IMG/VR virus record: IMGVR_UViG_3300029850_000274
Coordinates: 76,794-140,793 of that record
Source: a virus
Lineage: Duplodnaviria; Heunggongvirae; Uroviricota; Caudoviricetes
Length of the DNA: 64,000 nt
Reading direction: 5' to 3' (one strand)
Part shown: in pieces, positions 1 through 63,583 of the stretch
Layout: the number at the start of each line of letters is the position of its first letter
Position numbering within the stretch: position 1 is the first letter of the stretch
Notes under the pieces: model-generated
The model's database searches: none
The model's input: only the letters and a program-made list of their open reading frames with translations
What the model was told of the DNA's origin: nothing
Translations under genes and position numbers: made by a program

Positions 1-143
1 CTGTGATTATTATTATTTAGTGTTCTTGCAATGTTTGGTTGAGATACTCCAACACGTCTTGCAAGTTCACTGTTACTTATATTATTATTTTTCATTTGCA
101 TTTTTAACAATGTGATAATATCACTTTGATTTTTAACAATCAT
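1..143 (-). CDS. XRE-family HTH repressor (cI-like), N-terminal part; CDS continues beyond window start
   Basis: Minus-strand ORF starts at ATG 143..141 with an AAAGGAA RBS. Translation MIVKNQSDIITLLKMQMKNNNISNSELARRVGVSQPNIARTLNNNNH carries a classic HTH (SELARRVGVSQPNIAR). It lies divergent to the twin rightward promoters. Confidence 0.6.
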   Translation of the reverse strand, partial: MIVKNQSDIITLLKMQMKNNNISNSELARRVGVSQPNIARTLNNNNH

Positions 144-16662: not shown

Positions 16663-17388
16663 ATGAGTAACACAGGATGGATTAAACTCCATCGGAAAAT
16701 TACAGATCACTGGTTATGGGAAGATAAACCATTTGCAAGAGGACAAGCAATGATTGACTTATTGATTCTCGCAGGATATAATGATCAATCGAAATACATT
16801 GATGGAAATTTAGAAACAGTTAAGCGAGGATCGGTGGTTACTTCGATCAGAAAGTTATGTGATCGATGGGGTTGGAGCAATTCGAAGGTTGTCAAATTTT
16901 TAAAGATACTGGAAAACGACAGTATTATACATGTAAAAAGCGACGCTAAAAAGACAGTCATAACCATAGTAAATTACGGTGTTTATCAAGGATTTGTGGA
17001 TGAAAAAACTACACAGAAACGACACCAAAACGACGCAGAAGCGACACATAAAAAGAAAGTAAAGAATAATAATAAATATAATTATAATAATAATATAAAG
17101 CGGTTCAGACCGCCTAATTGCGAGCAAGTCTCCAGATATTGCCAACAGAGACACAATGGAATTGATCCAGAAGAGTTTGTAGATTACTACACAGCCAAAG
17201 ATTGGATGGTTGGCAGAAGCAAGATGACAGACTGGAAGGCAGCAGTACGAAACTGGGAACGTAATCAAGCTAAGAAGATCGCTAAACAAAAGTCCAAGGT
17301 AACAAACCTTGCACACTTGGAGTGTGATCGTAACTATGATTTCGATGCGTTGGAAAGACAGCTTTTTGAGAAGCAGATGGCAGGATGA
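16663..17388 (+). CDS. putative replication initiation / replisome-organizer protein (DnaD-like winged-helix N-domain)
   Basis: N-terminus MSNTGWIKLHRKITDHWLWEDKPF is typical of the GWIKLHRK...W class of Firmicutes phage/plasmid replication proteins. C-terminus has DnaD-like WxxxxW spacing (DWKAAVRNWERNQ). Confidence 0.4.
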   Translation: MSNTGWIKLHRKITDHWLWEDKPFARGQAMIDLLILAGYNDQSKYIDGNLETVKRGSVVTSIRKLCDRWGWSNSKVVKFLKILENDSIIHVKSDAKKTVITIVNYGVYQGFVDEKTTQKRHQNDAEATHKKKVKNNNKYNYNNNIKRFRPPNCEQVSRYCQQRHNGIDPEEFVDYYTAKDWMVGRSKMTDWKAAVRNWERNQAKKIAKQKSKVTNLAHLECDRNYDFDALERQLFEKQMAG

Positions 17389-17565: not shown

Positions 17566-18516
17566 ATGGCAGCAACACAGTTTGAAGTTATTGAAGCAGT
17601 AAATAATAACAACGCAGAAGAATCTGAAACAAAGATTAAAAGACGCAAGGACGGAAATCCTAAATGGACTCGATCTAACAAGCAGAAAGGCGTATCATCT
17701 TTAGTGTATCCGATCAAGGACAGAAAACAATTTGCAGCCTTTAATGCATATTTTAGAGACCAGATTGATAAATCGTACACAGAGTACAAACGATATGTAG
17801 CTGCCAGAAACAATCTTTTGGTTACAGTTGGAAACAATACAGCGTATCGTATTTCTGACATTGTTAGACTCAAATGGGGCGATTTATTAGACGATAAGAC
17901 TCGTAAACAGGAAAAGAAAACAAAGAAATTTAGAACTGTATACTTTAACGACTTAGTAACCGAAGCAGTGGATATTTTCTTTGAAGCTGTCGCAGGAACT
18001 AAATATGATGTCAAGATTGATGGTGAAGTGCCAATGGATGATTATGTTTTCGGAACATGTAAATCTGGATCAGGACACATGACAGAAGCAAATGCTTTAG
18101 ACTTTGTTAAAAAAGGTGCTAAAGCAGTTGGAATCGAGGATAACATTGGTACACATACACTACGAAAGAACTTTGTGTATTGGACACTTGTTGATCATAA
18201 AGATGATCAGAACGTATTGTATACACTTATGAGATTATTGAATCATAGCAGTCCTGCAATGACGTTTTTATATGCTACAATTACAGAAGAGGAAACTCAT
18301 GTATTGTTTGATGATATTGCTCAGACATATAAGGATATTATCAGCGGAGCATTTAACGGATTAAAGGAAAATGTTATTAATGTGAGTTATGATAGAGTTA
18401 TGGAGATTATCAAGTGTGCTTATGAGACTGGCAAGGATGATGCAGATCAAAATGATAGGGTACATGAGGATAATATGCAGGCACTAAAAGAGTTGTTGGA
18501 AGGAGTTATTTTATGA
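17566..18516 (+). CDS. tyrosine recombinase (phage integrase family catalytic domain)
   Basis: Catalytic residues are arranged R (ISDIVRLKWGD) ... HxxR (THTLRKNF) ... H (LNHSSPAM) ... Y (TFLYA). Confidence 0.6.
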   Translation: MAATQFEVIEAVNNNNAEESETKIKRRKDGNPKWTRSNKQKGVSSLVYPIKDRKQFAAFNAYFRDQIDKSYTEYKRYVAARNNLLVTVGNNTAYRISDIVRLKWGDLLDDKTRKQEKKTKKFRTVYFNDLVTEAVDIFFEAVAGTKYDVKIDGEVPMDDYVFGTCKSGSGHMTEANALDFVKKGAKAVGIEDNIGTHTLRKNFVYWTLVDHKDDQNVLYTLMRLLNHSSPAMTFLYATITEEETHVLFDDIAQTYKDIISGAFNGLKENVINVSYDRVMEIIKCAYETGKDDADQNDRVHEDNMQALKELLEGVIL

Positions 18517-19270: not shown

Positions 19271-19591
19271 ATGAAGATAAATACGATTAGACAAAATAAG
19301 GAAGAAAAGAAAGCAAACCAGAATCTTATGTGGATTTCAGCAGAGATTCCACCACTAAAACCAGATAACGCATCACGTTATATGAGATATAAAACATATC
19401 CTGTAATCGTGGATTACAAATATAATGATGGATGTGTGGACGAAGTGCTTGATTTCTGTGACTATGATTTTGAAGAAAAGAAATGGAAATTAGACAAGCC
19501 GCATAAAATCAGACAGTATTTTCCACTTCCAAGCAAGCACAAGGTAAAGCGTTCGAACAAAAAGAGAACACTTGTTCGAAAAATATCTTGA
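19271..19591 (+). CDS. hypothetical basic protein (106 aa)
   Basis: ORF with TAGGAGAA RBS. Confidence 0.45.
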   Translation: MKINTIRQNKEEKKANQNLMWISAEIPPLKPDNASRYMRYKTYPVIVDYKYNDGCVDEVLDFCDYDFEEKKWKLDKPHKIRQYFPLPSKHKVKRSNKKRTLVRKIS

Positions 19592-19663
19592 TTTTGTTCT
19601 GTAGTAGCATTATAATAAGAAGTGTAGAGATTCTTTGTTCACAACAAAAATTAACTTTCTTTC

Positions 19664-19701
19664 TTGCACCTATTGACAGGGTGCAAAAAGTATGGTATAT
19701 T
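19664..19701 (+). promoter_or_regulatory. Promoter with a palindromic operator flanking the -35 box (copy A)
   Basis: TTGCACC-ta-TTGACA-g-GGTGCAA. TTGACA at 19673-78, 17-nt spacer, TGgTATATT extended -10 (19693-19701). A near-identical 55-nt element recurs at 60229-60284. Confidence 0.55.
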
Positions 19702-19750: not shown

Positions 19751-20200
19751 ATGAACGGATATACTAACAAAGAAAGAAAAGGAAACGATAACAGAAAAAG
19801 AAAAGAATATGTATATGGCAAATATCAAAATCCTCAAGTTTGGGGAATATATTTTGCAGATTTGCCGAAAATTGAAGGTAGTCACATCTTGCATGGGAAA
19901 AGACCAGTCATCGTATATTCTAATAATATTTGTAACAATACGAGCACAGAGATTAACGTGTATCCAATTACAAAAAAATTAAGGAACTGGATACCAACAC
20001 ATGTAACCATTTATCCAAATACCAGTAATGGATTAAAAATGGTATCGCAGGTGTATTTAGAGCAAGGAAGAACAATTCCAAAGAATAATCTTTTAGAGTA
20101 TTGGGGAAGAATATCTGATCTATCTTTAATGTTAAAAATAGGACATGGCATTTTAATACAAAACGGCATGTTATCGTACATGAATGCAATGGCATCCTAG
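19751..20200 (+). CDS. MazF/PemK/EndoA-family endoribonuclease toxin homolog, no adjacent canonical antitoxin
   Basis: GIYFADLPKIEGSHILHGKRPVIVYSNNICNNTSTEINVYPITKKLRNWIPTHVTIYP...YLEQGRTIPKNNL aligns with B. subtilis EndoA ([28 protein letters not shown]...AAIT...LPTHVEI...LLEQIRTIDKQRL). ATG 19751 follows GAGGGA. Confidence 0.6.
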   Translation: MNGYTNKERKGNDNRKRKEYVYGKYQNPQVWGIYFADLPKIEGSHILHGKRPVIVYSNNICNNTSTEINVYPITKKLRNWIPTHVTIYPNTSNGLKMVSQVYLEQGRTIPKNNLLEYWGRISDLSLMLKIGHGILIQNGMLSYMNAMAS

Positions 20201-20214
20201 AAATGGAGAATATT

Positions 20215-21231
20215 ATGAATAATAAAGAATTGATACAAAATTATATAGATTCTCATGTATCAGAATCACGTCGCCCAACATGGAATTGGTTATTAGATTC
20301 TGATATTGCGGACGACAATGAATCTGGGTTAACGTATGCACCAGGTACAATCCAAGAGGCTATATTATCAGATACTAGAGGTAAAAAAACCAAAAGTATG
20401 AATTCTATTAAAAAAAGATATGACCAGCTCGTTAAACTATATACTTATGCATATGAACAAAATTACATTAAATATAATCCATTTGTTAATGATAAATTTA
20501 TAAACTTGCAATTAGCAGTTGATATATATTTCTCAAATAGAGTTGGTGTTAATTATGTTACACCAGATAAAATAAATGCGTTTATTTCTAATTTGATGTC
20601 GTGTAATGCATCAACTGATACCAAATTGAATACTAGATTTCACATTGTGAGTTTATATAATGGGATAAATGGAAAGGAGCTAAGAAATCTAAAATTCTCA
20701 GATATTAATCAAAATGATTTAACAATTTTTGGGAAACCAGTCTCCAAAGATTTTATTGAGACATTGAATGAATATAAATTGAACATGGGAGATACGAATA
20801 TATATGATGATTTTGTATTAATACCACGGGAAAAATGTAATAATATAGAAGAATATCAAGCGGAACAAAAGAGGATATATAGTAACGTGCAGTCTCAATT
20901 AGAATTAACTGGCAACACTTTATCCTATAAGAAATTGACAACCATTGATGTTATTAATTCTGGTTTTATACAATATTTAAAATCTAAAATGGATATCAAA
21001 GCAATTGCAGATTTATATTATGTTAAATCAAAAGAAGGAATTGCACGATCTGTAATCGCACGTCAATTTAGTGATATTGCAATTGATTTTTATTATAATT
21101 ATTATATATCATATCGATTAAAAAAGAAGCAATTTAGTGATCGTCAAACTGTAATTGGTAAAACTATCGGTTATTTATATAACGATGAAGACTATAAGCA
21201 GTATCGTGTACGTCAAACTATGACAGAATAA
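20215..21231 (+). CDS. hypothetical protein (338 aa), N/Y/K-rich, downstream of the MazF-like gene
   Basis: ORF starts 3-15 nt after the MazF-like stop. ATG 20215 follows GGAG. Local AT content is higher than the surrounding DNA. Confidence 0.5.
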   Translation: MNNKELIQNYIDSHVSESRRPTWNWLLDSDIADDNESGLTYAPGTIQEAILSDTRGKKTKSMNSIKKRYDQLVKLYTYAYEQNYIKYNPFVNDKFINLQLAVDIYFSNRVGVNYVTPDKINAFISNLMSCNASTDTKLNTRFHIVSLYNGINGKELRNLKFSDINQNDLTIFGKPVSKDFIETLNEYKLNMGDTNIYDDFVLIPREKCNNIEEYQAEQKRIYSNVQSQLELTGNTLSYKKLTTIDVINSGFIQYLKSKMDIKAIADLYYVKSKEGIARSVIARQFSDIAIDFYYNYYISYRLKKKQFSDRQTVIGKTIGYLYNDEDYKQYRVRQTMTE

Positions 21232-22655: not shown

Positions 22656-23993
22656 ATGGATGAAAATAAAACGGGCGTTTGGGTACGCTGTATGAATGGC
22701 AAAGAAGTTAAATATAATCCACGAGATGGTATGGCGCCATTTAATGTAGGAGATGTTGTTGAGGTAGAGAATAATGATGTATATGCGATGTTTAAAATTG
22801 AAACAGTAGAATTCAAAGGAGATCTTCCAATAACCGAAACTTATATGATAAAGCCACATGCCAAAGTTGCTAAAACAACGCAACCTTGGCACGATATTAC
22901 ATTTGATGATGCTGAGTCGATTGAAATGGATGTGTATAGAGATGGTAAAGTAAATATTATTGTTCCATATTGGTATGAAAAACTGCGATATAGACTACAA
23001 AGTATAAAGTCGACAGAGGCAACTATTATAATCATAAGAAAAGGAGAAACAATGAATGAAAAATGCGAGATTAAGACAGGTACGATTCTAGCTGACAAAA
23101 TACAGGTTGATACATCAACTCTACCGCCACTTTCAGAAAGAAGAGTATCTGCTCTGTCACACTATCAACAAAAACCAATTACTGCAACGTCAGAACCAAT
23201 AAAGAATGAGGTTGGTGAGCTTTCAGCCACAGGGAAATCATGGATGATACATGACGACCGTGGGTTGAGTCCTTATGCACCAACACATATTGATTGGAAT
23301 GGTGAAATGAGTGCAACTTTAACATTTGCGCCAGAAAAATTGGATGAAATCATGAGTGAACTTACAGGAAACGAAGAGGAGAAAGAAATGTATACAAAGA
23401 ATTTAAAAGAAATGATTAAGAAACCGATTTATGTTGACAAAGAAATTACTGTGAAGGAACCAATGTTAGATAACAACGGTAAACAGATCGAAAAAGATGG
23501 TAAGCCAGTGTTTAAAGTAAAACATTATCATGGAATGGTTAAAATCTTATGGGTTAGTGGAGCAGAAACTGTTGCGTATGTAGAAGGAAATGATGTGTAT
23601 GACAGAGAAAACGGTTTCAAAACCTGTGTATTAAAATACCTTTGCGGCAACGCAGGTGCTCATGATGCAGTTGATTTTTGGACAAACAAATATGTGAAAT
23701 ATCCAAGTAGTTGCATTGAAGTGACAGAGAACCTGTGTAAATTAGAAGAGATCATGGAGAAGGATAAGTATAGAAAAGATGATCAGAAAGGTTTGCCTCA
23801 TGCAAAATTCTTAAGAAGAATAGGTTTGCTTTCAGGTGGTTCTGTTGCGGGTAAACTGATTTACAAAAAATGTGATATGAAATATGTCAATGAATTCAAA
23901 AAACTTGCCAAGAAATATTTTCCAGAACTTAAGTGTAAAGAAATTTATGTGAATGGTAACAAGAACGATGAAATTTTTGTAGCAATTAAATAA
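22656..23993 (+). CDS. hypothetical protein (445 aa)
   Basis: ORF with AGAGAGGAAAATTAT before the ATG. Confidence 0.55.
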   Translation: MDENKTGVWVRCMNGKEVKYNPRDGMAPFNVGDVVEVENNDVYAMFKIETVEFKGDLPITETYMIKPHAKVAKTTQPWHDITFDDAESIEMDVYRDGKVNIIVPYWYEKLRYRLQSIKSTEATIIIIRKGETMNEKCEIKTGTILADKIQVDTSTLPPLSERRVSALSHYQQKPITATSEPIKNEVGELSATGKSWMIHDDRGLSPYAPTHIDWNGEMSATLTFAPEKLDEIMSELTGNEEEKEMYTKNLKEMIKKPIYVDKEITVKEPMLDNNGKQIEKDGKPVFKVKHYHGMVKILWVSGAETVAYVEGNDVYDRENGFKTCVLKYLCGNAGAHDAVDFWTNKYVKYPSSCIEVTENLCKLEEIMEKDKYRKDDQKGLPHAKFLRRIGLLSGGSVAGKLIYKKCDMKYVNEFKKLAKKYFPELKCKEIYVNGNKNDEIFVAIK

Positions 23994-27662: not shown

Positions 27663-28499
27663 ATGATTAGTATTAATGGAGTCCCAGTTGTTCCAGAATC
27701 TTTTCCAGATGGAACGCAAAAAATTGATTTTTCGTTAGGTGTGATATCTCAAGAAATCATAGAAAACAAGACAGTGTATATCACATGGTTATATGAGTCA
27801 GATAAAGAGTTGTTTTCCTTGTTGTGTATTTCTAAAAATATTAAAGAACATTTTCCGTGGTTACAACAAGCATTAGTGATGCCGTATATACCAAATGCAA
27901 GATTTGACAGAGTAAAAGAGCCAAGCGAATGCTTTACATTAAAATATTTTGCAGAAATTATTAATAGTCTTGGATTTATAAGAGTTATTGTAACTGATCC
28001 ACATTCCGATGTATCTACTGCATTGATTGATCATGTAGAAGTAATCCGTGGAGCATCATATATTACACAAACTTGTAGCAAAGTCGTTAAAGCAGAACCA
28101 TCAAGAAATCTTGTAATTTATTTCCCAGATAGCGGATCACTAAAAAGATATTCTGAATTTGTATCAGATGATTATCCGATTGTCTATGGAATTAAAAATC
28201 GTGATTGGAAGACAGGAGAAATTCTTGGTATTGAGATTCATGGAGATACAGATAAATTAGACGAAAATACGGCAATCCTTATGATTGATGATATTTGTAG
28301 TAAGGGTGGCACATTCTATTATGGATCAAAAGAATTAAACAAATACGGTTGTAAAGATATGTATTTATATGTTAGTCACTGTGAAAATACAATTCTTGAT
28401 GGAGAATTATTAAAGAAAGATAGTTTGTTTAAAAAAGTGTATACGACACGTAGTATTTTTACAAAAGAACATGAGAAAGTTGAGGTGTTAGATTTATGA
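27663..28499 (+). CDS. ribose-phosphate pyrophosphokinase (Prs)-like type-I PRTase; candidate ADPR-pyrophosphate synthetase (Adps-like)
   Basis: PRPP-binding loop LMIDDICSKGGTF (DD..D.GGT). Two-PRT-domain length (278 aa). Four-base overlap with the NAMPT-like gene. Confidence 0.6.
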   Translation: MISINGVPVVPESFPDGTQKIDFSLGVISQEIIENKTVYITWLYESDKELFSLLCISKNIKEHFPWLQQALVMPYIPNARFDRVKEPSECFTLKYFAEIINSLGFIRVIVTDPHSDVSTALIDHVEVIRGASYITQTCSKVVKAEPSRNLVIYFPDSGSLKRYSEFVSDDYPIVYGIKNRDWKTGEILGIEIHGDTDKLDENTAILMIDDICSKGGTFYYGSKELNKYGCKDMYLYVSHCENTILDGELLKKDSLFKKVYTTRSIFTKEHEKVEVLDL

Positions 28500-29965
28500 A
28501 ACAAACAAATCCAATGTTATTAATTGATTTTTATAAAGCAGTTCATGCTGAAATGTTACCAAAAGGTATTACAAAATCTGTTTCTTATTTTACTCCACGT
28601 ATGAGCAGAGTAAAACGATGGAATGAAGTAGCCATGTTTGGATTACAAGGATTCATTAAAGAGTATTTGGTCGATTATTTTAATGAGTATTTTTTCTTTG
28701 AATATAGAAACAAAGCAATTGGTACTTATAAGACAGTAATGGATGCAACTCTTGGAGAAGGTACATATGGATTACAGAAAATCGAAGATTTATATGATCT
28801 TGGCTATCTTCCAATTGAGATTAAGGCTCTTCCTGAAGGAACTTTAGTACCAATGCATGTGCCGATGTTTAGTATTGAGAATACACATAAAGATTTTGCA
28901 TGGTTGCCACAGGCATTAGAAAGCTTAATTTCCGCAGAAATGTGGCATCCGATGATCGCTGCAACTGTCGGGCATACATATAGACAGATCGTTAATAAGT
29001 TTTATGAAATGACTTGCGATGACAATGCCGTAAAAGCTAGAGCATTAGGAGCTTTTGATTTTCGTGGAGAAGAGTGTTTACAGTCTGCGGTTAAAGCAGG
29101 GGCAGGATGGTGTTTATCATTCTTAAATACAGCTACGGTTCCAACAATTCCATATTTAGAGAGAAATTATAATTGTGATTGTACGAAAGAACCAGTTGCT
29201 TTTGGTAGCCCGTCTACTGAGCATTCGGTTGCGTGTAGTAATTATGCGATTGACGGAGATGAAGAGACTCTGATTAAAAGATTACTTACAGAGATTTATC
29301 CAAACACAAGCTTCTCCGCAGTATTGGATTCATATGATTATTGGAACGTTGTAGAGAATATTCTTCCAAAACTCAAGAATGAGATCATGAATCACAATGG
29401 ATGTTTTCTTGTAAGAGGAGATTCAGGAGATTGTGTAGATGTAGTAACCAGAACGGTATTCAAGTTATGGGAAGAATTTGGCGGAACTACGAATAGTAAA
29501 GGATACAAAGTATTAGATCCTCATATAAAAGCAATTTACGGAGATTCAATTACAGTGCAGAGATGTGAGCAGATTTATGACATCTTAGAGAAAAATGGAT
29601 TCGCAGCAAGCAATGTTGCACTTGGCGTTGGATCATTCTCATTCCAGTGCATCGAAGAAGATGGAATTTTAAAACCATTTACAAGAGATACATTTAGCAG
29701 TTGTATTAAAGCAACGTATTGTGAGATTGATGGTAAACCATATCCAATTTTTAAGAATCCAAAAGATGGCGGATTTAAGAAATCTCAGAGAGGTTTATGT
29801 CATGTCTATAAAGGATCAGACGGTAAATTGACATTTAAAGATGGATATACTTCAGAAAATCTTCCAATGAATAATCTGCTTGAGACAGTATTTAGAGATG
29901 GCAAATTGGTAAAGGAACAGTCATTACAGGAAATTAGGAGAGTTTTAAACGAAGGAGAATTTTAA
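28496..29965 (+). CDS. nicotinamide phosphoribosyltransferase (NAMPT/NadV)-like; candidate Namat-like NAD+ reconstitution enzyme
   Basis: N-terminus NPMLLIDFYKAVHAEMLPKGITKSVSYFTPR parallels NAMPT NPILL.DSYK.tHy.qyP....v.SYfe.R. VRGDSGD motif. 489 aa, which is NAMPT-sized rather than PncB-sized. Confidence 0.65.
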   Translation: MKQTNPMLLIDFYKAVHAEMLPKGITKSVSYFTPRMSRVKRWNEVAMFGLQGFIKEYLVDYFNEYFFFEYRNKAIGTYKTVMDATLGEGTYGLQKIEDLYDLGYLPIEIKALPEGTLVPMHVPMFSIENTHKDFAWLPQALESLISAEMWHPMIAATVGHTYRQIVNKFYEMTCDDNAVKARALGAFDFRGEECLQSAVKAGAGWCLSFLNTATVPTIPYLERNYNCDCTKEPVAFGSPSTEHSVACSNYAIDGDEETLIKRLLTEIYPNTSFSAVLDSYDYWNVVENILPKLKNEIMNHNGCFLVRGDSGDCVDVVTRTVFKLWEEFGGTTNSKGYKVLDPHIKAIYGDSITVQRCEQIYDILEKNGFAASNVALGVGSFSFQCIEEDGILKPFTRDTFSSCIKATYCEIDGKPYPIFKNPKDGGFKKSQRGLCHVYKGSDGKLTFKDGYTSENLPMNNLLETVFRDGKLVKEQSLQEIRRVLNEGEF

Positions 29966-30375
29966 TGGATTTTTACTTAGATAAAGACCATTGCTATCAG
30001 CGACTTGAAGATGAATTTAAGAAATATGGAAAATTAATTTTCTGTGTAGATTTTGATGATACATTATATGATTTTCACAAAGTTGGTAGAACTTATGACG
30101 ATGTGATGAATTTGCTTCGAGAATGGGAAGATTATTCTGAAGTGATTATTCTGACAGGTAATGGATCAGACAAATATGATATGATCGCAAATTATTTACA
30201 GAATCATAAGATTAAATACAAAGGTATCAACTGTGACAGTTCAATTCCCGTAGGCGGTCGCAAGGCATATGCAAATGTATATATTGATGACAGAGGTGGC
30301 TTGCCTTTAGTCTATAAACACTTAAAAATACTTATTTCAAGAATTAAGAGAGGAGATATAAAACATGAGTTTTAA
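29965..30375 (+). CDS. small HAD-superfamily phosphatase-like protein (136 aa)
   Basis: HAD motif I VDFDDTLYD (DxDxT). Overlaps both neighbours, consistent with translational coupling inside the NAD island. Confidence 0.45.
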   Translation: MDFYLDKDHCYQRLEDEFKKYGKLIFCVDFDDTLYDFHKVGRTYDDVMNLLREWEDYSEVIILTGNGSDKYDMIANYLQNHKIKYKGINCDSSIPVGGRKAYANVYIDDRGGLPLVYKHLKILISRIKRGDIKHEF

Positions 30376-31135
30376 TGCAGTAGAAACCAAAGACAGATTA
30401 GTGCAGTGGATCAAAGATTGGTTTGAAATTAATGGTAAAGGATGCAATTCCATTGTAGGAATTTCAGGAGGTAAAGATTCATCAGTTGTCGCTGCCTTAT
30501 GTGTCGAAGCACTAGGTAAAGATCAAGTTATTGGTGTTATGATGCCACAGGGAGATCAGTCAGACATTGAATATTCAAGAATGTTATGTGATCACTTAAG
30601 AATTGATAACTATACGGTTAATATCTACGAGCCATGTTTAAGTATCAAGCATGAAGTATCAAGCGTATTAAATGGTAAATGGAGTAAACAGAGTGCCACA
30701 AATTTACCTGCTCGTATCCGAATGGCTACATTGTATGCTTTTGCACAGAGTATGAATGGAAGAGTAGCAAATACATGTAATTTATCTGAAGATTGGGTCG
30801 GATATGCAACAAGATATGGAGATTCAGCCGGAGATTTTAGTCCATTAAGTGATCTAACTGTGACAGAAGTTAAAGCAATTGGTAGAGTTCTGGGACTTCC
30901 AACAGAGTTAATCGAAAAAACTCCTACTGATGGGTTATGTGGCAAGACAGATGAAGATAATCTTGGATTTACATACGAAGTGTTGGATGAATATATCAGA
31001 ACAGGTGAATGCAAGGATAAAGCAGTGAGACAGATCATTGATGAAATGCATGAGAAGAATGTATTTAAACTTGCTCCAATGCCTAAATTTATATCTGGCA
31101 TGTGGATCGAGGCAGGAATGGAGTTGGATGATTAA
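30365..31135 (+). CDS. nadE: NH3-dependent NAD+ synthetase
   Basis: PP-loop ATP pyrophosphatase motif IVGISGGKDSSVVAAL (SGGxDS). 256 aa. Confidence 0.7.
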   Translation: MSFNAVETKDRLVQWIKDWFEINGKGCNSIVGISGGKDSSVVAALCVEALGKDQVIGVMMPQGDQSDIEYSRMLCDHLRIDNYTVNIYEPCLSIKHEVSSVLNGKWSKQSATNLPARIRMATLYAFAQSMNGRVANTCNLSEDWVGYATRYGDSAGDFSPLSDLTVTEVKAIGRVLGLPTELIEKTPTDGLCGKTDEDNLGFTYEVLDEYIRTGECKDKAVRQIIDEMHEKNVFKLAPMPKFISGMWIEAGMELDD

Positions 31136-32569: not shown

Positions 32570-32712
32570 GGAAACATAGCTCAGTTGGTAGAGCAGGCAA
32601 TACATAACATTCATTTTTCTGCCTCCATATAAGTATTTTTATATTATTTACATTTTAATTTTTCATCACATATAAATTGCCGACACAGGTTCGATTCCTG
32701 TTGTTTCCACTA
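32570..32712 (+). tRNA. tRNA gene interrupted by a ~68-nt AT-rich insertion in the anticodon loop (anticodon possibly CAU)
   Basis: Acceptor GGAAACA/TGTTTCC (7 of 7 pairs), D-arm GCTC-AGTTGGTA-GAGC, anticodon stem GGCAA (32596-600) pairing TTGCC (32677-81), T-arm ACAGG-TTCGATT-CCTGT, discriminator A. 76 nt lie between the anticodon-stem halves where 7 are expected. Confidence 0.5.
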
Positions 32713-32749: not shown

Positions 32750-32953
32750 TTAATCGTTTGGTATGACCTCAATAACATCTTCAACTTTGCAATCAAGATA
32801 TAAGCAAATTTTATCGATGTTTTCGAGACTGATATACTGATTCTTTGCCATCTTGGCAATTGTACCAGACCCCATATTTAAAGCGGTTCGTAAATCAGAT
32901 TTTGTCATACCATTTTTCGCTAAAGTTACGAAAAGCGGTTTATAACTTATCAT
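32750..32953 (-). CDS. XRE-family HTH transcriptional regulator (68 aa), minus strand
   Basis: MISYKPLFVTLAKNGMTKSDLRTALNMGSGTIAKMAKNQYISLENIDKICLYLDCKVEDVIEVIPND. GGAGG RBS 7 nt upstream on the minus strand. One of only two minus-strand genes. Confidence 0.6.
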   Translation of the reverse strand: MISYKPLFVTLAKNGMTKSDLRTALNMGSGTIAKMAKNQYISLENIDKICLYLDCKVEDVIEVIPND

Positions 32954-36199: not shown

Positions 36200-36382
36200 A
36201 TGGACGTTTTATTTTACATAATTTGGGTATTGGCGTTTATGGTGATCGTAGCGATCGGCATTGGAGTACCGTACATGACTTATTACAATTACAAAAGAAT
36301 TAAGGCAATGGATAAGAAACTTACAGGAATGTGTACAGGTCTTGGGATTATGCTAAGACCAGAAGAGGGTGATGAAGAATGA
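36200..36382 (+). CDS. small membrane protein (60 aa)
   Basis: ORF with AAAAGGAGAAAG RBS. Confidence 0.45.
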   Translation: MDVLFYIIWVLAFMVIVAIGIGVPYMTYYNYKRIKAMDKKLTGMCTGLGIMLRPEEGDEE

Positions 36383-57972: not shown

Positions 57973-60235
57973 AGTGGTGGATAGTACAAAAGAATATGAG
58001 TTTGAGATTGTCCCATTATATCAGATTTATTATAATGAAGAATCTTTATTTGGGATTTACACATTCTGTACAGCAGATGATTTACCAGAATGTAAACCAT
58101 ATAATAATAATGATTTTGATGACTTATCCGATAAAAAAATGAATAAATGTGGCAAATTGGTTGGTAATATGCAGGAGTTGTATTTAGGAACGAAATATAA
58201 GGTTAAAGCCAATATGACATATTCTAAGAAATACAATGAATACCAATATAAACCACTTTCTATAGTTGCTGAAGTTCCCAAAACTTTTGAAGCACAAAAG
58301 ATATTTTTAAAAACACAGACGAACGCAGTGATCGCAGATCAGTTAATTGCGAAATATCCTAATGTTGTTGAAGATGTAATGAATGGTCAGTTAGAGATGA
58401 TTGACCATTCAGAAATCAAAGGACTAGGAGATAAAACTTGGAAGAAGCTTAGAGATAAAATTATTAAAAACTATGTGATTTCTGATATTGTTGTAATGTT
58501 ACAACCATATGGGGTTACGTTACCAACGATTGAAAGATTATTGAAATCCGAACCTAATCCAAGTGTTTTAAAAAAACAGATTGAACAAAATCCATATATA
58601 CTAACTAGGGTAAAGGGCATGGGTTTTAAACGAGTTGATGATATTGCACTCAAATTGAAACCAGAATTGCGATGTTCAAATCAACGGTTAAATGCATTTA
58701 TTTACTATGACTTGCATCAAGTTGGTGATAATGATGGACATACATATGTGTATATCAAAAATTTAAGAAGCAATATTAGTAATGCAGCGTCTGAATGCTT
58801 ACCTATATTTGACGAATGGTTTGATGAAGAATCAGATAAAAAATTACCAAATTATTTATATACATCTGGAGATAAAATTGGTCTGAAATCGTATTATAAA
58901 ATTGAAATGGATATTTACGAATTGATTAAAGATATGGAGAAATATTCATTTGGGAATACAACAGATTACGAACCAATAACAGATAGTGAGATTAGTCAGA
59001 CGATTTCTGAAGTTGAAGATGAAGAAGGGTTTATGTTTTCAGAAGAGCAAATTACAGGAGTTAACAAAGCATTAAATTGCCAAGTTGTGTTTATTTCTGG
59101 AGAAGCTGGAACTGGTAAAACAACAATTCTGAAACCAATTATTAAATGCTACCAAAAAAGAAATAATAGCATTGTTGCGTGTGCCTTATCTGCAAAAGCA
59201 GCCCAAAGAATTAAAGAAGCAACAGGTTTGGACTCACGGACTATTCATAGGTTACTTGTAGCAGAAGGTATTGATAGTTTTTGTTATAACCAAGATAACC
59301 CATTACCTGCTGATGTAGTAATCATGGATGAAAGTAGCATGACAAATGCGAGCCTTTTCTATAATTTTTTATTGGCAATTCGACCAGGAACACGATTAAT
59401 TTTTTGTGGTGACTATATGCAGTTGCCACCGATTGGATTTGGTAATATTTTCTCGGATCTGTTAAAAAAGAAAGGTTTAAATAGTGTACAGCTTACCAAA
59501 CCGATGAGACAAGCAGAAAAATCTGGTATTTTAACGGATGCAAGAAAGATTCGCAGAGGGATTAATCCATTGGATAGCCCACAATTAAAAATTGTTCATG
59601 GTGAACTAAATGATATGTTTTATTTGTTCAGGAAGAATAGAGAATCATTGTTCAATATGGCAGTAAAGCAGTATATCAAATCTGTCAAAGAGGAAGGGCT
59701 TGACAATGTTGTGATTATTTCTCCACGAAGAAGTAATTGTATGAACAGCACAGATGAATTGAACAAAGCAGTACAGAAAGAATTATTTGCTAGTAGTAAC
59801 AAACCATTTGTTGAATTCAAAGATCGTAAATACTATTTAGGAGATAAGGTATTACAGACTTCAAATGATTACGAGCGAGATGTATTCAATGGTGATATTG
59901 GATACATTACAGAGATTGACAAAGAAAAAGAAATATGTTTGGTGTCTATGAATGCAAATATTGAAGAAAAGCTGATTGAATATTCTTTCGCTCAGTTAGG
60001 ACAACTGCAATTAGCATATGCATTAACCACGCATAAACTTCAAGGATCAGCTGCGCAAACTGTGATCGGTATTATTGACAATACACATTACAAATTGCTT
60101 GATAACTGTATGTTATATACAATGTTGACACGAGCTAAGAAAAGATTTGCACTCCTTGCAGAGCCAGAAGCGTTTAAGAGATGTATTATGACCAATCATA
60201 ACAAGAGACGCACATGGTTAAGCTTAAAAAATTAA
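57962..60235 (+). CDS. recD2: RecD2-like SF1 DNA helicase (N-terminal HhH plus AAA_30/UvrD_C_2)
   Basis: HhH RVKGMGFKRVDDIAL. Walker A VVFISGEAGTGKTTIL. Walker-B-like VVIMDESSM. Motif VI YALTTHKLQGSAAQTVI. Confidence 0.7.
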   Translation: MSPKVVDSTKEYEFEIVPLYQIYYNEESLFGIYTFCTADDLPECKPYNNNDFDDLSDKKMNKCGKLVGNMQELYLGTKYKVKANMTYSKKYNEYQYKPLSIVAEVPKTFEAQKIFLKTQTNAVIADQLIAKYPNVVEDVMNGQLEMIDHSEIKGLGDKTWKKLRDKIIKNYVISDIVVMLQPYGVTLPTIERLLKSEPNPSVLKKQIEQNPYILTRVKGMGFKRVDDIALKLKPELRCSNQRLNAFIYYDLHQVGDNDGHTYVYIKNLRSNISNAASECLPIFDEWFDEESDKKLPNYLYTSGDKIGLKSYYKIEMDIYELIKDMEKYSFGNTTDYEPITDSEISQTISEVEDEEGFMFSEEQITGVNKALNCQVVFISGEAGTGKTTILKPIIKCYQKRNNSIVACALSAKAAQRIKEATGLDSRTIHRLLVAEGIDSFCYNQDNPLPADVVIMDESSMTNASLFYNFLLAIRPGTRLIFCGDYMQLPPIGFGNIFSDLLKKKGLNSVQLTKPMRQAEKSGILTDARKIRRGINPLDSPQLKIVHGELNDMFYLFRKNRESLFNMAVKQYIKSVKEEGLDNVVIISPRRSNCMNSTDELNKAVQKELFASSNKPFVEFKDRKYYLGDKVLQTSNDYERDVFNGDIGYITEIDKEKEICLVSMNANIEEKLIEYSFAQLGQLQLAYALTTHKLQGSAAQTVIGIIDNTHYKLLDNCMLYTMLTRAKKRFALLAEPEAFKRCIMTNHNKRRTWLSLKN

Positions 60236-60244
60236 CTTTCTTTC

Positions 60245-60282
60245 TTGCACCCGTTGACAAGGTGCAAAAAGTATGATAAGAT
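60245..60282 (+). promoter_or_regulatory. Promoter with palindromic operator flanking -35 (copy B of the 19664 element)
   Basis: TTGCACC-cg-TTGACA-a-GGTGCAA, 17-nt spacer, TGaTAAGAT (60274-60282). Preceded by the same AATTAACTTTCTTTC leader as copy A. Confidence 0.55.
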
Positions 60283-60312
60283 ACTAATATGTTAAGGAAA
60301 GGAGATGTGAAA

Positions 60313-60951
60313 ATGAGAAAAAGATTTTTAATGAAAGTTGTCTCGTTTAGTTTTTTAGCTATGTGTTCAGGGTTTATAACTCATACAGTTAAAGCAGAGG
60401 AGCGACCCTCGGTAGAGGTTTCAACCTTATCAACAGAGACAACTGTTACAGAAAATAAACAAGACAATGTGATTTCAAACAACCCAATTAACCAAAGCGT
60501 TGCATTAAAAGATGTTCATGAGCATTATCAGAAATGTAAGAAAGCTGATGAGGAGAAAGCAAGGCAGATTCGATTAGAAAAACTTCGAAAGAAACGATTG
60601 CGAATTAAACGACAACGGTTGAAGCGAAAGCAAGAACTTGAAAAGAGTTCACTTGGAACATTTTTGATCACGGCATATTGTCCATGTTATGAATGTTCTG
60701 AAGGATATGGATCTAAGATTGCTTGGAATCATGCAGGGCATAGATTTGCTCGACCGTATCATACGATTGCGGTTGATAAAAACATTATCCCTTATGGAAC
60801 AAGAGTCAAGATTGAGGGATACGGTGATACAATCTTTGTGGCAGAAGATTGTGGAGGCAAAGTAAAAGGAATGCATGTAGACGTGTTCAAATCAACACAT
60901 TCCGAAACAATAAATGTGCAACAGCACAGAAAAATATATGTAGTGAAGTAA
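60313..60951 (+). CDS. secreted 3D-domain protein (MltA / YuiC-like cell-wall-binding lytic-transglycosylase fold)
   Basis: Signal peptide MRKRFLMKVVSFSFLAMCSGFITHTVKA. Lys/Arg-rich linker. C-terminal 3D domain TAYCPCYECSEGYGSKIAWNHAGHR...TIAVDKNIIPYGTRVKIEGYGDTIFVAEDCGGKVKGMHVDVF. Confidence 0.6.
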   Translation: MRKRFLMKVVSFSFLAMCSGFITHTVKAEERPSVEVSTLSTETTVTENKQDNVISNNPINQSVALKDVHEHYQKCKKADEEKARQIRLEKLRKKRLRIKRQRLKRKQELEKSSLGTFLITAYCPCYECSEGYGSKIAWNHAGHRFARPYHTIAVDKNIIPYGTRVKIEGYGDTIFVAEDCGGKVKGMHVDVFKSTHSETINVQQHRKIYVVK

Positions 60952-61034: not shown

Positions 61035-63020
61035 ATGAAAACTGAATATGTGAAAGAAATGAATGTCTTGATCGACAGAATCAATGATGCTTCATATGCG
61101 TATTACGCAGAGGATAATCCGATCATTTCAGATAAAGAATTTGACGATTTATGCGCTGCTTTAGAACGACTTGAGAGAGATTCTGGCGTTGTTTTGAATA
61201 ATTCGCCCATCCACCACGTTCAAGGATTTATAATTGATTCTCTTGCTAAAGTAAAGCATACACGCCCAATGTTATCAGCTCAGAAGACGAAGGATGTCAA
61301 TGAGGTCAAAAAATTTCTTGCGGATAAAATTGGTGTTTTATCGTGGAAAGAAGATGGTCTCAGTATTGTTCTCAGATACGAAAATGGACGCTTAAAACAA
61401 GCAATTACAAGGGGAAATGGCGAAATCGGTGAGGATGTCACTCACACGATGAAAATGGTACGAAATGTTCCACAGTCAATCCCTGAAAAGCGTTATCTTG
61501 AAATTCGTGGTGAAGCAGTTATTGGATATGATGATTTTGCTAAGATTAATGAAAAATTACATGGCAAATACAAAAATGCAAGAAATTTAGCAGCAGGTAC
61601 TGTTAGACAGTTAGACTCTAATGTGGCAAAAGACAGGAAGTTGGCTTACAAAGTATTTGAATTAGTCAAACTTGGAGACACACCTGAATCAGAAATGCCA
61701 AGCATTGCAGATAGCTTTAAATATCTTGCAGAACAAGGGTTTGATGTAGTAGAGCATCAGGTCGTTAACCGAGATAATGTTGAAGAGTATATGGCAACAT
61801 TTCAGCCAGAAGAATACAAATATCCTGTTGATGGTTTAATTATTTCCTACAACGATTATCAATATGGTAAATCGTTAGGAATGACGGGGCATCATCCATT
61901 ATCGTTGATCGCCTACAAATATAAAGATGACCTCTACGAAACAACAATCAGAGATATTGAATGGAATACATCTCGTACAGGGTTGATTAATCCAGTTGCA
62001 GTATTCGATCCAGTTGATCTTGATGGCGCAGAAACCACAAGAGCTACATTACATAATGTAAGTTACATTGAAGGGTTGGAACTTGGTGCAGGTGATACGA
62101 TTCAGGTTTATCGTAGTAATATGGTGATTCCAAAAGTACACGATAATCTGACAAGAAGCAATACATTCAAGATTCCAGATACTTGTCCAACCTGCGGTGG
62201 CGAAGCAAAAATCATCAATGAAAATGGTAGTAAAGTTTTAAAATGCATGAATCCTGACTGCAAGGCAAAACTATTAAGCAAGTTTGTGAACTTTGTTTCC
62301 AGAGATGCTATGAATATTCAAGGTTTATCTGAGGCAACACTGAAAAGATTTATTGATCTTGGATGGCTGAAAGATTATACAGATATTTATAATTTAGCAG
62401 AGCATAAATCTGAAATGAAGAACATTGATGGATTTGGTGCAAAAAGTGTTTCTTCCTTATTAAATAGCATCGAGGAAAGTCGCAGATGCAAACTGGTTAA
62501 TTTCGTAACAGCACTTGGTATTGAACTTGTCGGGAAGTCAACGGCAAAGGATATTTGCAAGCTTATTGATAAGATTTCTCTATCGAATAATGAAAATCCA
62601 TACGATGTATTTATTAAAAGAATCAAACAGAGAAAATATTTTGGACATATTGATGGTATTGGTATCAATACTTCATTGTCAATGGATGATTATTTCAAAG
62701 AAAATCTTGAAATGGTTGAGAAATTAGCCGAAGAACTTGAATTTGAAATGCCAGAAAGCAAGAAAGAATCTGCTGTTAACCTCACAGGAATGACTTTTGT
62801 TGTAACTGGTAAGGTAAATAAGTTTACCAATCGTAATGCCATTAAGGATGAGATTGAATCCAGAGGTGGGAAGGTTGCAGGATCAGTGTCAAAGAACACG
62901 AATTATCTTGTGAACAATGATGTGAATTCTACAAGTAGCAAGAATAAAAAGGCACAGCAATTAGGTATTCCAATTATTGACGAAGATGGACTGATCAAGA
63001 TTCTAAAAGGAGAAAATTGA
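61035..63020 (+). CDS. ligA: NAD+-dependent DNA ligase
   Basis: Adenylation motif SWKEDGLSIV (KxDG). Cys4 zinc finger CPTCGG...C..C. HhH region. C-terminal BRCT GMTFVVTGKVNKFTNRNAIKDEIESRGGKVAGSVSKNTNYLVNND. Confidence 0.8.
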   Translation: MKTEYVKEMNVLIDRINDASYAYYAEDNPIISDKEFDDLCAALERLERDSGVVLNNSPIHHVQGFIIDSLAKVKHTRPMLSAQKTKDVNEVKKFLADKIGVLSWKEDGLSIVLRYENGRLKQAITRGNGEIGEDVTHTMKMVRNVPQSIPEKRYLEIRGEAVIGYDDFAKINEKLHGKYKNARNLAAGTVRQLDSNVAKDRKLAYKVFELVKLGDTPESEMPSIADSFKYLAEQGFDVVEHQVVNRDNVEEYMATFQPEEYKYPVDGLIISYNDYQYGKSLGMTGHHPLSLIAYKYKDDLYETTIRDIEWNTSRTGLINPVAVFDPVDLDGAETTRATLHNVSYIEGLELGAGDTIQVYRSNMVIPKVHDNLTRSNTFKIPDTCPTCGGEAKIINENGSKVLKCMNPDCKAKLLSKFVNFVSRDAMNIQGLSEATLKRFIDLGWLKDYTDIYNLAEHKSEMKNIDGFGAKSVSSLLNSIEESRRCKLVNFVTALGIELVGKSTAKDICKLIDKISLSNNENPYDVFIKRIKQRKYFGHIDGIGINTSLSMDDYFKENLEMVEKLAEELEFEMPESKKESAVNLTGMTFVVTGKVNKFTNRNAIKDEIESRGGKVAGSVSKNTNYLVNNDVNSTSSKNKKAQQLGIPIIDEDGLIKILKGEN

Positions 63021-63583
63021 ATATGAGTAAAGAGAAAAGTACAGTATGGAAGATTCCAGTAATTATTCTAGTAGGAGTTGTGGCGGTATTTCTAGCCTGT
63101 ACATTTGGAGTTCAGAGTTCGCAGAACCATGCAATTTCATTAGAAGAACAGGTTGATAAAGCAAAATCTGACATTAATGTACAAGAGAAACGCAGGATTG
63201 ATCTGATTTATAACTTGGCAGATTGTGTGAAATCTTATGATAAACATGAGGCAAATACACTTAAAGAAATCGTTAAAGGACGTAGTTCTAAAGGAACTGT
63301 TGAAAATGCAAGTACAGCAATTGCAGCAGTTACAGAATCTTATCCAGAACTCAAGGCAGATAAGAACTATAAAAGGTTAATGAATGAATTATCTGTCACA
63401 GAGAATTTAATTGCCGAATATCGCAGTAACTATAATCAGCAGATCAAAGAATATAACAGATATGTAAAGAAATTTCCAACACGAATTTTCTTAAATAATC
63501 TTGGATATGAAACAAAAAATTATACTTATTTAGAATATAAGGATGCTCCCGAAACTGCCCCTCAGCATTTATTTGGAGAGTAA
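63017..63583 (+). CDS. lemA: LemA-family membrane protein
   Basis: N-terminal TM helix, then the LemA pattern ...QEKRRIDLIYNLADCVKSYDKHEANTLKEIVKGR...ITENLIAEYRSNYNQQIKEYNRYVKKFPTRIF. Confidence 0.6.
   Translation: MNMSKEKSTVWKIPVIILVGVVAVFLACTFGVQSSQNHAISLEEQVDKAKSDINVQEKRRIDLIYNLADCVKSYDKHEANTLKEIVKGRSSKGTVENASTAIAAVTESYPELKADKNYKRLMNELSVTENLIAEYRSNYNQQIKEYNRYVKKFPTRIFLNNLGYETKNYTYLEYKDAPETAPQHLFGE

Follow-up and report, generated by a model that had tools for sequence, protein, structure and literature searches.

To our knowledge, master repressors built on an integrase fold have been described only recently, and only for SPbeta-like phages of Bacillus. In SPbeta itself, about ten promoter regions contain SPBRE boxes to which MrpR binds, and the peaks found by chromatin affinity purification sequencing (ChAP-seq) include yopM, which marks MrpR's own operon, yonP, the gene adjoining yonO, and yorM (PMC10516654). 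In phage phi3T, SroF binds an asymmetric box of 26 base pairs (bp) as a monomer (bioRxiv 10.1101/2025.11.27.690993). Here we describe a promoter-operator element in a 64,000-nucleotide (nt) stretch of a Caudoviricetes genome (IMG/VR record IMGVR_UViG_3300029850_000274, positions 76,794 to 140,793; hereafter the window). The element is present twice in the window, as copy A in front of a MazF-like gene and as copy B in front of a gene for a secreted 3D-domain protein, and related phages carry it a third time, at a site C that lies outside the window. Taking together the comparative sequence data, a predicted structure and the analogy with MrpR and SPBRE, we consider it fairly probable that the three sites form an autoregulated repressor regulon of the immunity type, with a dimer-style operator over the -35 hexamer and with p342, a protein of 342 amino acids (aa) encoded behind copy A, as its likeliest binder.

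A repeat search of the window returned copies A and B as a direct repeat of 52 nt with 92% identity. The original prediction had placed a duplicated element of 55 nt at two positions about 40 kb apart; both places were right, and the length is better given as about 52 nt, because the two copies cease to match within the -10 region. As had been proposed, both copies have the core TTGCACC-NN-TTGACA-N-GGTGCAA without a mismatch, so that a perfect inverted repeat brackets the -35 hexamer. With up to three mismatches allowed, the core occurs at only two sites in 64 kb (0.01 expected), as does the pattern of the arms alone with two mismatches (0.12 expected). In both copies TTGACA is followed by a 17-nt spacer, a TGn and either TATATT or TAAGAT as the -10 hexamer; the element thus has what defines a sigma-A extended -10 promoter, namely a -35, a spacer of 17 +/- 1 nt, a TGn, a -10 of the form TAnnnT and a downstream gene with a ribosome-binding site. 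The pattern TTGACA-N14-TGnTAnnnT has five plus-strand occurrences in the window (227, 327, 19673, 33035 and 60254), all of them intergenic, and the -35/-10 register of the element is kept in all lineages. Judged by these motifs, the element is a sigma-A-type, that is, host-type, extended -10 promoter whose -35 lies inside the 9-bp spacer of a dyad operator. Because they are host-type, promoters A, B and C look early, which speaks against the late-lysis timing that had been suggested.

A dyad at -35 could also serve an activator, in the manner of the lambda CII sites at -35 of pRE, pI and paQ, and three dispersed promoters with sites flanking -35 do mirror the layout of the CII regulon. However, CII binds direct repeats on either side of a poor -35, whereas the repeats here are inverted and surround a consensus TTGACA; moreover, with this hexamer, a 17-nt spacer and an extended -10, activation should not be needed. 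We regard an activator site as improbable.

The relatives of the phage carry seven operator types with sub-variants, all with a 9-nt spacer and with the promoter in register, and differing in their arms (Table 1). Thirteen arm variants from different lineages and sites share the geometry arm-NN-TTGACR-N-arm', and 105 of their 127 arm cells are complementary, a figure that none of 2000 permutations of the right arms reached. Shifting the register by one or two bases lowers the complementarity to 33-41%. Arm pairs 2-5 each appear as three to four different Watson-Crick pair types, and the innermost pair is C...G in every variant. Within the window, arm complementarity of 9/10 is found at two of 126 TTGAC sites, which are the two copies, against a background of mostly 1-4/10. 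Among 35 type I copy-B sites, collected by their flanks alone, all 14 arm positions and all six -35 positions are invariant; all three interstitial positions vary, as do many flanking bases. This pattern of change indicates that the dyad symmetry of the operator is under selection, with compensatory changes. Exact IMG/VR scans for the type III, IV, V and VII operators gave no matches.

The same data bear on the idea that the element is no more than a good promoter, multiplied by copying and homogenised by gene conversion, with no dedicated regulator and with a palindrome that is incidental or hairpin-forming. Gene conversion is indeed visible (see below), and the single-strand hairpins would be moderately stable, at -2.2 to -7.7 kcal/mol. 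Neutral copying nevertheless fails to explain dyad-preserving compensatory changes in at least seven arm sequences, or arms that stay invariant while the interstitial bases vary, and a hairpin would lie upstream of the element's own transcription start and lack a U-tract. This explanation appears very unlikely.

The search for further TTGCACC-N9-GGTGCAA sites that the original prediction had called for found no others in the window. In IMG/VR, at least 118 stretches contain the exact core, located on phage contigs 80-170 kb in length, and the flanks of these cores fall into three classes: A, with the MazF-like gene; B, with the 3D-domain gene; and C, outside the window. The prediction had counted two copies; near-complete contigs carry exactly three sites each. 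In contig coordinates, 18-26 kb separate A from site C, which is upstream and on the opposite strand, and 33-48 kb separate A from site B, which is downstream and on the same strand; when relatives are aligned to the window, site C falls about 3 kb to the left of window position 1, divergently oriented. Apart from site C, no strong promoter precedes the operon that it heads, whose last gene encodes a homologue of YonO, the SPbeta RNA polymerase (41% identity over 920 aa). Read-through from site C to yonO is something we infer, because a weak hairpin lies behind the first gene of the operon.

The operator types of distant sites change together. A and B are both type I in 24 contigs, of which 13 also have type I at C, and in five of five contigs A and B are both type II; no contig is mixed. 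In one contig, type III stands at A and, on the other strand, at C, and the type V block was found at B in one sample (L124) and at C in two others (L158 and L159). At each site only a block of about 45 nt is switched, and the flanks remain alike. In one relative (L102), class A flanks surround a class C core, a case of gene conversion between copies. The concerted switching supports the view, already put forward for the first two genes, that sites A, B and C constitute one regulon.

What the sites head is also telling. The original prediction had spoken of two unrelated accessory genes; its identification of both gene products as MazF-like and 3D-domain proteins was borne out by Pfam (Table 1), and their description as accessory was not, copy A heading a cassette that co-varies with the operator and copy B a conserved positional equivalent of SPbeta yorM. 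The cassette consists of the MazF-like gene and the p342 gene, which starts 3 nt after the MazF-like stop codon. The MazF-like allele follows the operator type, with at least 94.6% identity within type I and about 70% in other types. In a type II phage compared with the type I window, the genes upstream of the operator block are much alike (integrase 94%, p106 93% identity), and behind the replaced block the identity drops to 70% for the MazF-like protein and 56% for p342, before returning to 93% for p121 and 99% for p216. The co-variation of the operator with both cassette genes has no exception over 39 type I and 14 type II loci. Every p342 allele examined has its own arm sequence, closer alleles having more similar arms, and operator types I-IV and the P0004 variant could be assigned to p342 alleles. 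The helicase gene and the gene of a 287-aa protein, next to sites B and C, do not behave in this way: while the type I operator stays unchanged, identity may be 65% or 98% for the helicase and 56% for the 287-aa protein. Because the copy A cassette co-varies with the operator, copy A probably heads the regulator's own operon. A 445-aa protein (22656-23993) was considered as specificity factor and rejected, its identity within type I phages being 56%-77%. Likewise, a 29-nt repeat (19965-19993 and 36286-36314) was considered as the sign of a second MazF gene and rejected, no PemK match being found there.

Copy B lies between a RecD2-like helicase gene, whose stop codon falls within the block, and the NAD-dependent ligase gene. 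The 3D gene stands at the end of the replication module, as yorM does, and its product is 27% identical to YorM across the 3D domain. The helicase-3D-ligase synteny is kept even in relatives whose helicase is only 63% identical. No notable promoter or terminator was found in the window sequence between the 3D gene, the ligase gene and the LemA-family gene, and the latter two probably share the transcription unit of copy B.

Allele tracking also bears on the two XRE-family proteins of the window, XRE#1 (1-143, minus strand) and XRE#2 (32750-32953), which had been named as the candidate regulators. XRE proteins commonly bind dyad operators, and both genes adjoin strong promoters. Their alleles, however, do not follow the operator type: XRE#1 has at least three alleles beyond that of the window, with 35-53% identity, among phages with an identical type I operator, and XRE#2 is 98.5% identical in L123, a type IV phage with entirely different arms. 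Furthermore, XRE#1 has perfect dyads of its own, TATATCA-N4-TGATATA, over the -10 of adjacent promoters, and scans of the window gave no TTGCACC-type site near either gene. It is thus highly unlikely that either XRE protein binds the element.

A closer contender is a toxin-antitoxin (TA)-type complex that binds the operator, p342 acting as antitoxin and repressor and the MazF-like protein as co-repressor; this would be a special case of the regulon proposed here. The two genes are tightly coupled, 3 nt apart, and co-vary as a pair. Type II TA modules typically have a palindromic operator over their own promoter, and toxin-first modules in which the toxin is a co-repressor include MqsRA and HigBA. 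Additionally, the MazF-like protein has GKRP and PIT motifs which, by eye, stand at what we take to be the catalytic Arg and Thr positions of B. subtilis MazF. In type II modules such as MazEF, MqsRA and HigBA, as here, a toxin gene (PemK/MazF in this case) is coupled to a second gene behind a palindrome. On the other hand, no MazE/AbrB-like antitoxin is present, the partner being a 342-aa protein with an integrase fold, a fold found in no known antitoxin; the upstream 106-aa protein and the downstream 342-aa and 121-aa proteins gave no antitoxin domain in Pfam, PHROGs or NCBIfam. The same operator is also found at two further, unrelated operons, which is unusual for TA autoregulation. We hold this possibility to be real and rather doubtful, and the same can be said of the wider proposal that the MazF-like and p342 genes form a single addiction-plus-immunity cassette in which p342 would both neutralise the toxin and, as a dimer in the manner of true recombinases at their core sites, read the dyad as master repressor.

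The case for p342 as the binder draws also on its predicted structure. A model made with AlphaFold2 (AF2) from eight sequences was too poor (predicted local distance difference test, pLDDT, 54) and became usable, with a pLDDT of 75.9, after two distant members had been added. In a Foldseek search with this ten-sequence model, 15 of the 16 best matches are recombinases or MrpR/YopR, the exception being rank 6. The protein is accordingly predicted to have a two-domain tyrosine-recombinase fold, with a core-binding and a catalytic-like domain. The alignment of the ten family members has no invariant or near-invariant His, so p342 would lack the HxxR motif and is unlikely to have recombinase activity; judged by eye, the position of the Arg in TGLR reads N/S/D/E. 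By sequence the family is isolated. No match to p342 was found with hhalign against the window's own integrase, by search of the PDB sequences or NCBIfam, or by tblastn against 50,697 phage records, and the family has five representatives among 1.84 billion proteins.

A recombinase fold at an arm-spacer-arm site raises the question of whether the arms and the 9-bp spacer are core sites of a tyrosine recombinase. Sites such as loxP, dif and lambda COC' have inverted arms of 7-12 bp and a short spacer, a layout that would suit two recombinase-fold monomers here as well; two integrase-like genes lie nearby, and sequence patches have moved between copies. But the spacer always holds the -35 in exact register with the -10 and, at 9 bp, differs from the 6-8 bp of crossover spacers; p342 apparently lacks the conserved catalytic His and hence HxxR; and the catalytically intact integrase (17566-18516) does not track the operator type. 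Nothing points to strand exchange. Both ends of each exchanged patch run back into the local flank, which argues for gene conversion rather than crossover, and recombination between A and B, which are direct copies, would delete 40 kb. We therefore give very little credence to a lox- or dif-like role.

Several points weigh against a p342-governed regulon. The AF2 model is of medium quality (ten sequences) and the Foldseek E-values are marginal, and hhalign detected no similarity of p342 to SPbeta YopR or YopP (probability <1%). A dimer on a dyad would depart from the known mechanism, because SroF binds an asymmetric box as a monomer. Gene conversion between copies could by itself keep the copies of a genome alike; it explains this likeness and not the preserved dyad symmetry. 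The five type II contigs were compared at A and B only, a type II-like site C being known from another sample (L160). Finally, p342 and the MazF-like protein are inseparable by co-variation, because both are in the cassette, and the co-variation at site A could be mere physical linkage.

With these reservations, the likeness of the proposed regulon to the MrpR/SroF systems is manifold: the putative repressor is predicted to have an integrase-like fold and apparently lacks a recombinase active site, several host-type promoters share a repeated element, among them the one ahead of the putative repressor, and there are multiple specificity types. The yopM, yonP and yorM peaks of MrpR correspond to sites A, C and B, respectively; a strict regular expression found no SPBRE-like motif near SPbeta yorM, so the peak there is taken from the published data only (PMC10516654). 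The differences are equally clear. p342 has no detectable sequence similarity to these proteins and is not a sequence member of their family, its gene is coupled to a MazF-like toxin gene, and there are three sites per genome instead of about ten. Moreover, the SPBRE box ATACAAAWAATATGTAT is variably placed, whereas the operator described here is a dyad fixed over -35. As in the lambdoid immunity systems (CI/Cro at OR/OL, with the imm434 and imm21 swaps), the gene of the putative repressor and its operators are swapped together among phages that are otherwise near-identical, distant operators change together, and the dyads overlap promoter elements. In contrast to those systems, the candidate regulator is not a helix-turn-helix protein, the centres of the half-sites are separated by about 16 bp, against about 10 bp there, and each promoter has one site in place of a tripartite array.

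From these comparisons we infer that p342 binds the operator as a dimer and represses promoters that are active early. With a protein dimer seated on both arms, sigma region 4 could not reach the -35, and promoters A, B and C would all be silenced. In this scheme p342, whose gene belongs to the unit behind copy A, would repress its own operon (the MazF-like gene and p342) and two other units, one with the yorM-like 3D gene, the ligase and LemA (B) and one with the YonO-type RNA polymerase (C). The operator and the MazF-like/p342 cassette would then constitute an exchangeable immunity module with several specificity types.

Table 1. Features of the regulon in the window, and arms of the operator types with the sites at which they occur
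Feature	Position or site	Strand	Evidence or remark
Copy A of the operator-promoter block	19646..19697	+	Repeat search, core scan, promoter reading
Copy A, core	19664-19686		Exact
Copy A, left arm	19664-19670		TTGCACC
Copy A, -35	19673-19678		TTGACA
Copy A, right arm	19680-19686		GGTGCAA
Copy A, TG	19693-19694
Copy A, -10	19696-19701		TATATT
MazF/PemK-like endoribonuclease gene	19751..20200 (alternative start 19721)	+	First gene behind copy A; Pfam PemK_toxin PF02452 E=1.7e-15; PHROG MazF-like E=2.8e-15
p342 gene (342 aa, predicted tyrosine-recombinase fold)	20203..21231	+	Candidate operator-binding repressor; PHROG integrase profile E=2.2e-9
Copy B of the operator-promoter block	60227..60278	+	Repeat search, core scan, promoter reading
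RecD2-like helicase stop codon	60233-60235		Within copy B
Copy B, core	60245-60267		Exact
Copy B, left arm	60245-60251
Copy B, -35	60254-60259
Copy B, right arm	60261-60267
Copy B, -10	60277-60282		TAAGAT
Secreted 3D-domain protein gene	60313..60951 (alternative start 60289)	+	First gene behind copy B; Pfam 3D E=4.9e-12
NAD-dependent DNA ligase and LemA-family genes	61035..63583 (ligase 61035-63020, LemA 63017-63583)	+	Next genes behind copy B
Type I arms	A, B, C		TTGCACC / GGTGCAA
Type II arms	A, B		CTTTAAAYGC / GCAYATAAAG
Type III arms	A, C		TTGACAC or TTGGCAC / GTGGCAA
P0004 variant arms	A		TTGAAAC / GTATCAA; counted with type III in the symmetry analysis; contig starts inside the operator, left arm known for its inner 7 nt only
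Type IV arms	A		TTTATCTGC / GAAGATAAG
Type V arms	B, C		TTAAAAAATC / GAGTTTTTAG
Type VI arms	B		ACTTAATTTAAC / GATAAAATAAGT
Type VII arms	B		ACTTAATATTTC / GCAATATTAAGA

Other features of the window lie close to these subjects. The integrase gene 1.1 kb upstream of operator A (17566-18516, plus strand) encodes a tyrosine recombinase (PF00589) with YRISD, HTLR, NHSS and LYAT motifs, and its 94-98% identity in both operator types means that it does not track the operator; it may serve in integration or in dimer resolution. The sole LexA (Cheo)-like box of the window, AGAACACTTGTTCG with one mismatch (19565-19578, in the region 19565-19616; 0.46 expected by chance), stands 10 nt upstream of a promoter-like TTGATT-17-TATAAT and about 85 nt upstream of operator A. 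Its GAAC-N4-GTTC is kept in diverged relatives and it may provide an SOS input to the cassette, yet it lies inside the 3' end of the open reading frame (ORF) of p106. A further site, TTGACT-17-TATAAT (16754-16782, plus strand), has its -35 bracketed by an 8/10 dyad of the same geometry as the operator (CAAGCAAT-GA-TTGACT-T-ATTGATTC); it sits inside the ORF 16663-17388 and could be due to chance.

The XRE#1 gene (start codon at 143, minus strand) faces tandem promoters at 227 and 327, with dyads at 236-253 and 336-353; further half-sites are found at 591 and 617, with a minus-strand promoter at 645. From this arrangement, the region 143-700 looks like a separate classical repressor-operator set. 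The two promoters are followed by a long ORF-poor stretch (360-1170), in which no Rfam family was matched, and in relatives some 2.8 kb more of ORF-poor sequence separates XRE#1 from the promoter of site C (L096, 8500-11280). An origin, a packaging site or non-coding RNAs might reside in these stretches. A tRNA gene occupies 32570-32709 on the plus strand, just upstream of the XRE#2 gene on the minus strand, and is interrupted after its anticodon stem by about 70 nt of inserted sequence; Rfam matches tRNA across the full model with 46.2 bits, and ARAGORN reports no tRNA in the window.

The phage itself is, by gene content and order, a large, uncultured and distant relative of SPbeta. In addition to the YonO homologue, relatives have Pfam matches to YorF and YorH, and they share an SPbeta-like gene order in which genes for DnaB-like, RecJ-like and DNA polymerase III alpha-like proteins precede the 3D gene. 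A megablast search of both loci against 50,697 phage records gave no match, and the closest cultured phages reach about 32% helicase identity. When one genome per GTDB species was scanned for the core motif, the sole hit was an unrelated one in Microvirga. Study labels suggest gut metagenomes as the source of the family; one relative forms a 158.6-kb contig of its own in an isolate genome. The replication module is strongly mosaic, as helicase alleles range from 63% to 98% identity among otherwise similar phages, and in some relatives (L126, L127 and L128) LAGLIDADG homing-endonuclease genes are inserted beside polymerase and ligase genes. Genes of the counter-defence type are also present: NAPRTase and NAD synthase genes in the window (28496-31135) and, downstream of site B in relatives, genes for Tad2-like, Sequestin and ADP-ribosyl glycohydrolase proteins (L124, 16692-18783; L125, 9080-10295).

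Collectively, the locus suggests that the principle of an integrase-fold repressor extends to a large, abundant and uncultured phage family. What is new here is a putative repressor unrelated in sequence to those described, a dyad over the -35 and three sites per genome, one of them heading the operon of a phage RNA polymerase. The comparative data supply ready, testable pairs of repressor alleles and operators together with a compact immunity cassette. SPbeta has links to toxin biology of its own, YopM, AimX and YosL acting on the host MazEF, and the linkage to a MazF-type RNase ties immunity to toxin biology in this family as well. If p342 and the MazF-like protein did form one addiction-plus-immunity cassette, the natural allele-operator pairs, at least six in number, would amount to a specificity code for DNA recognition by an integrase fold.

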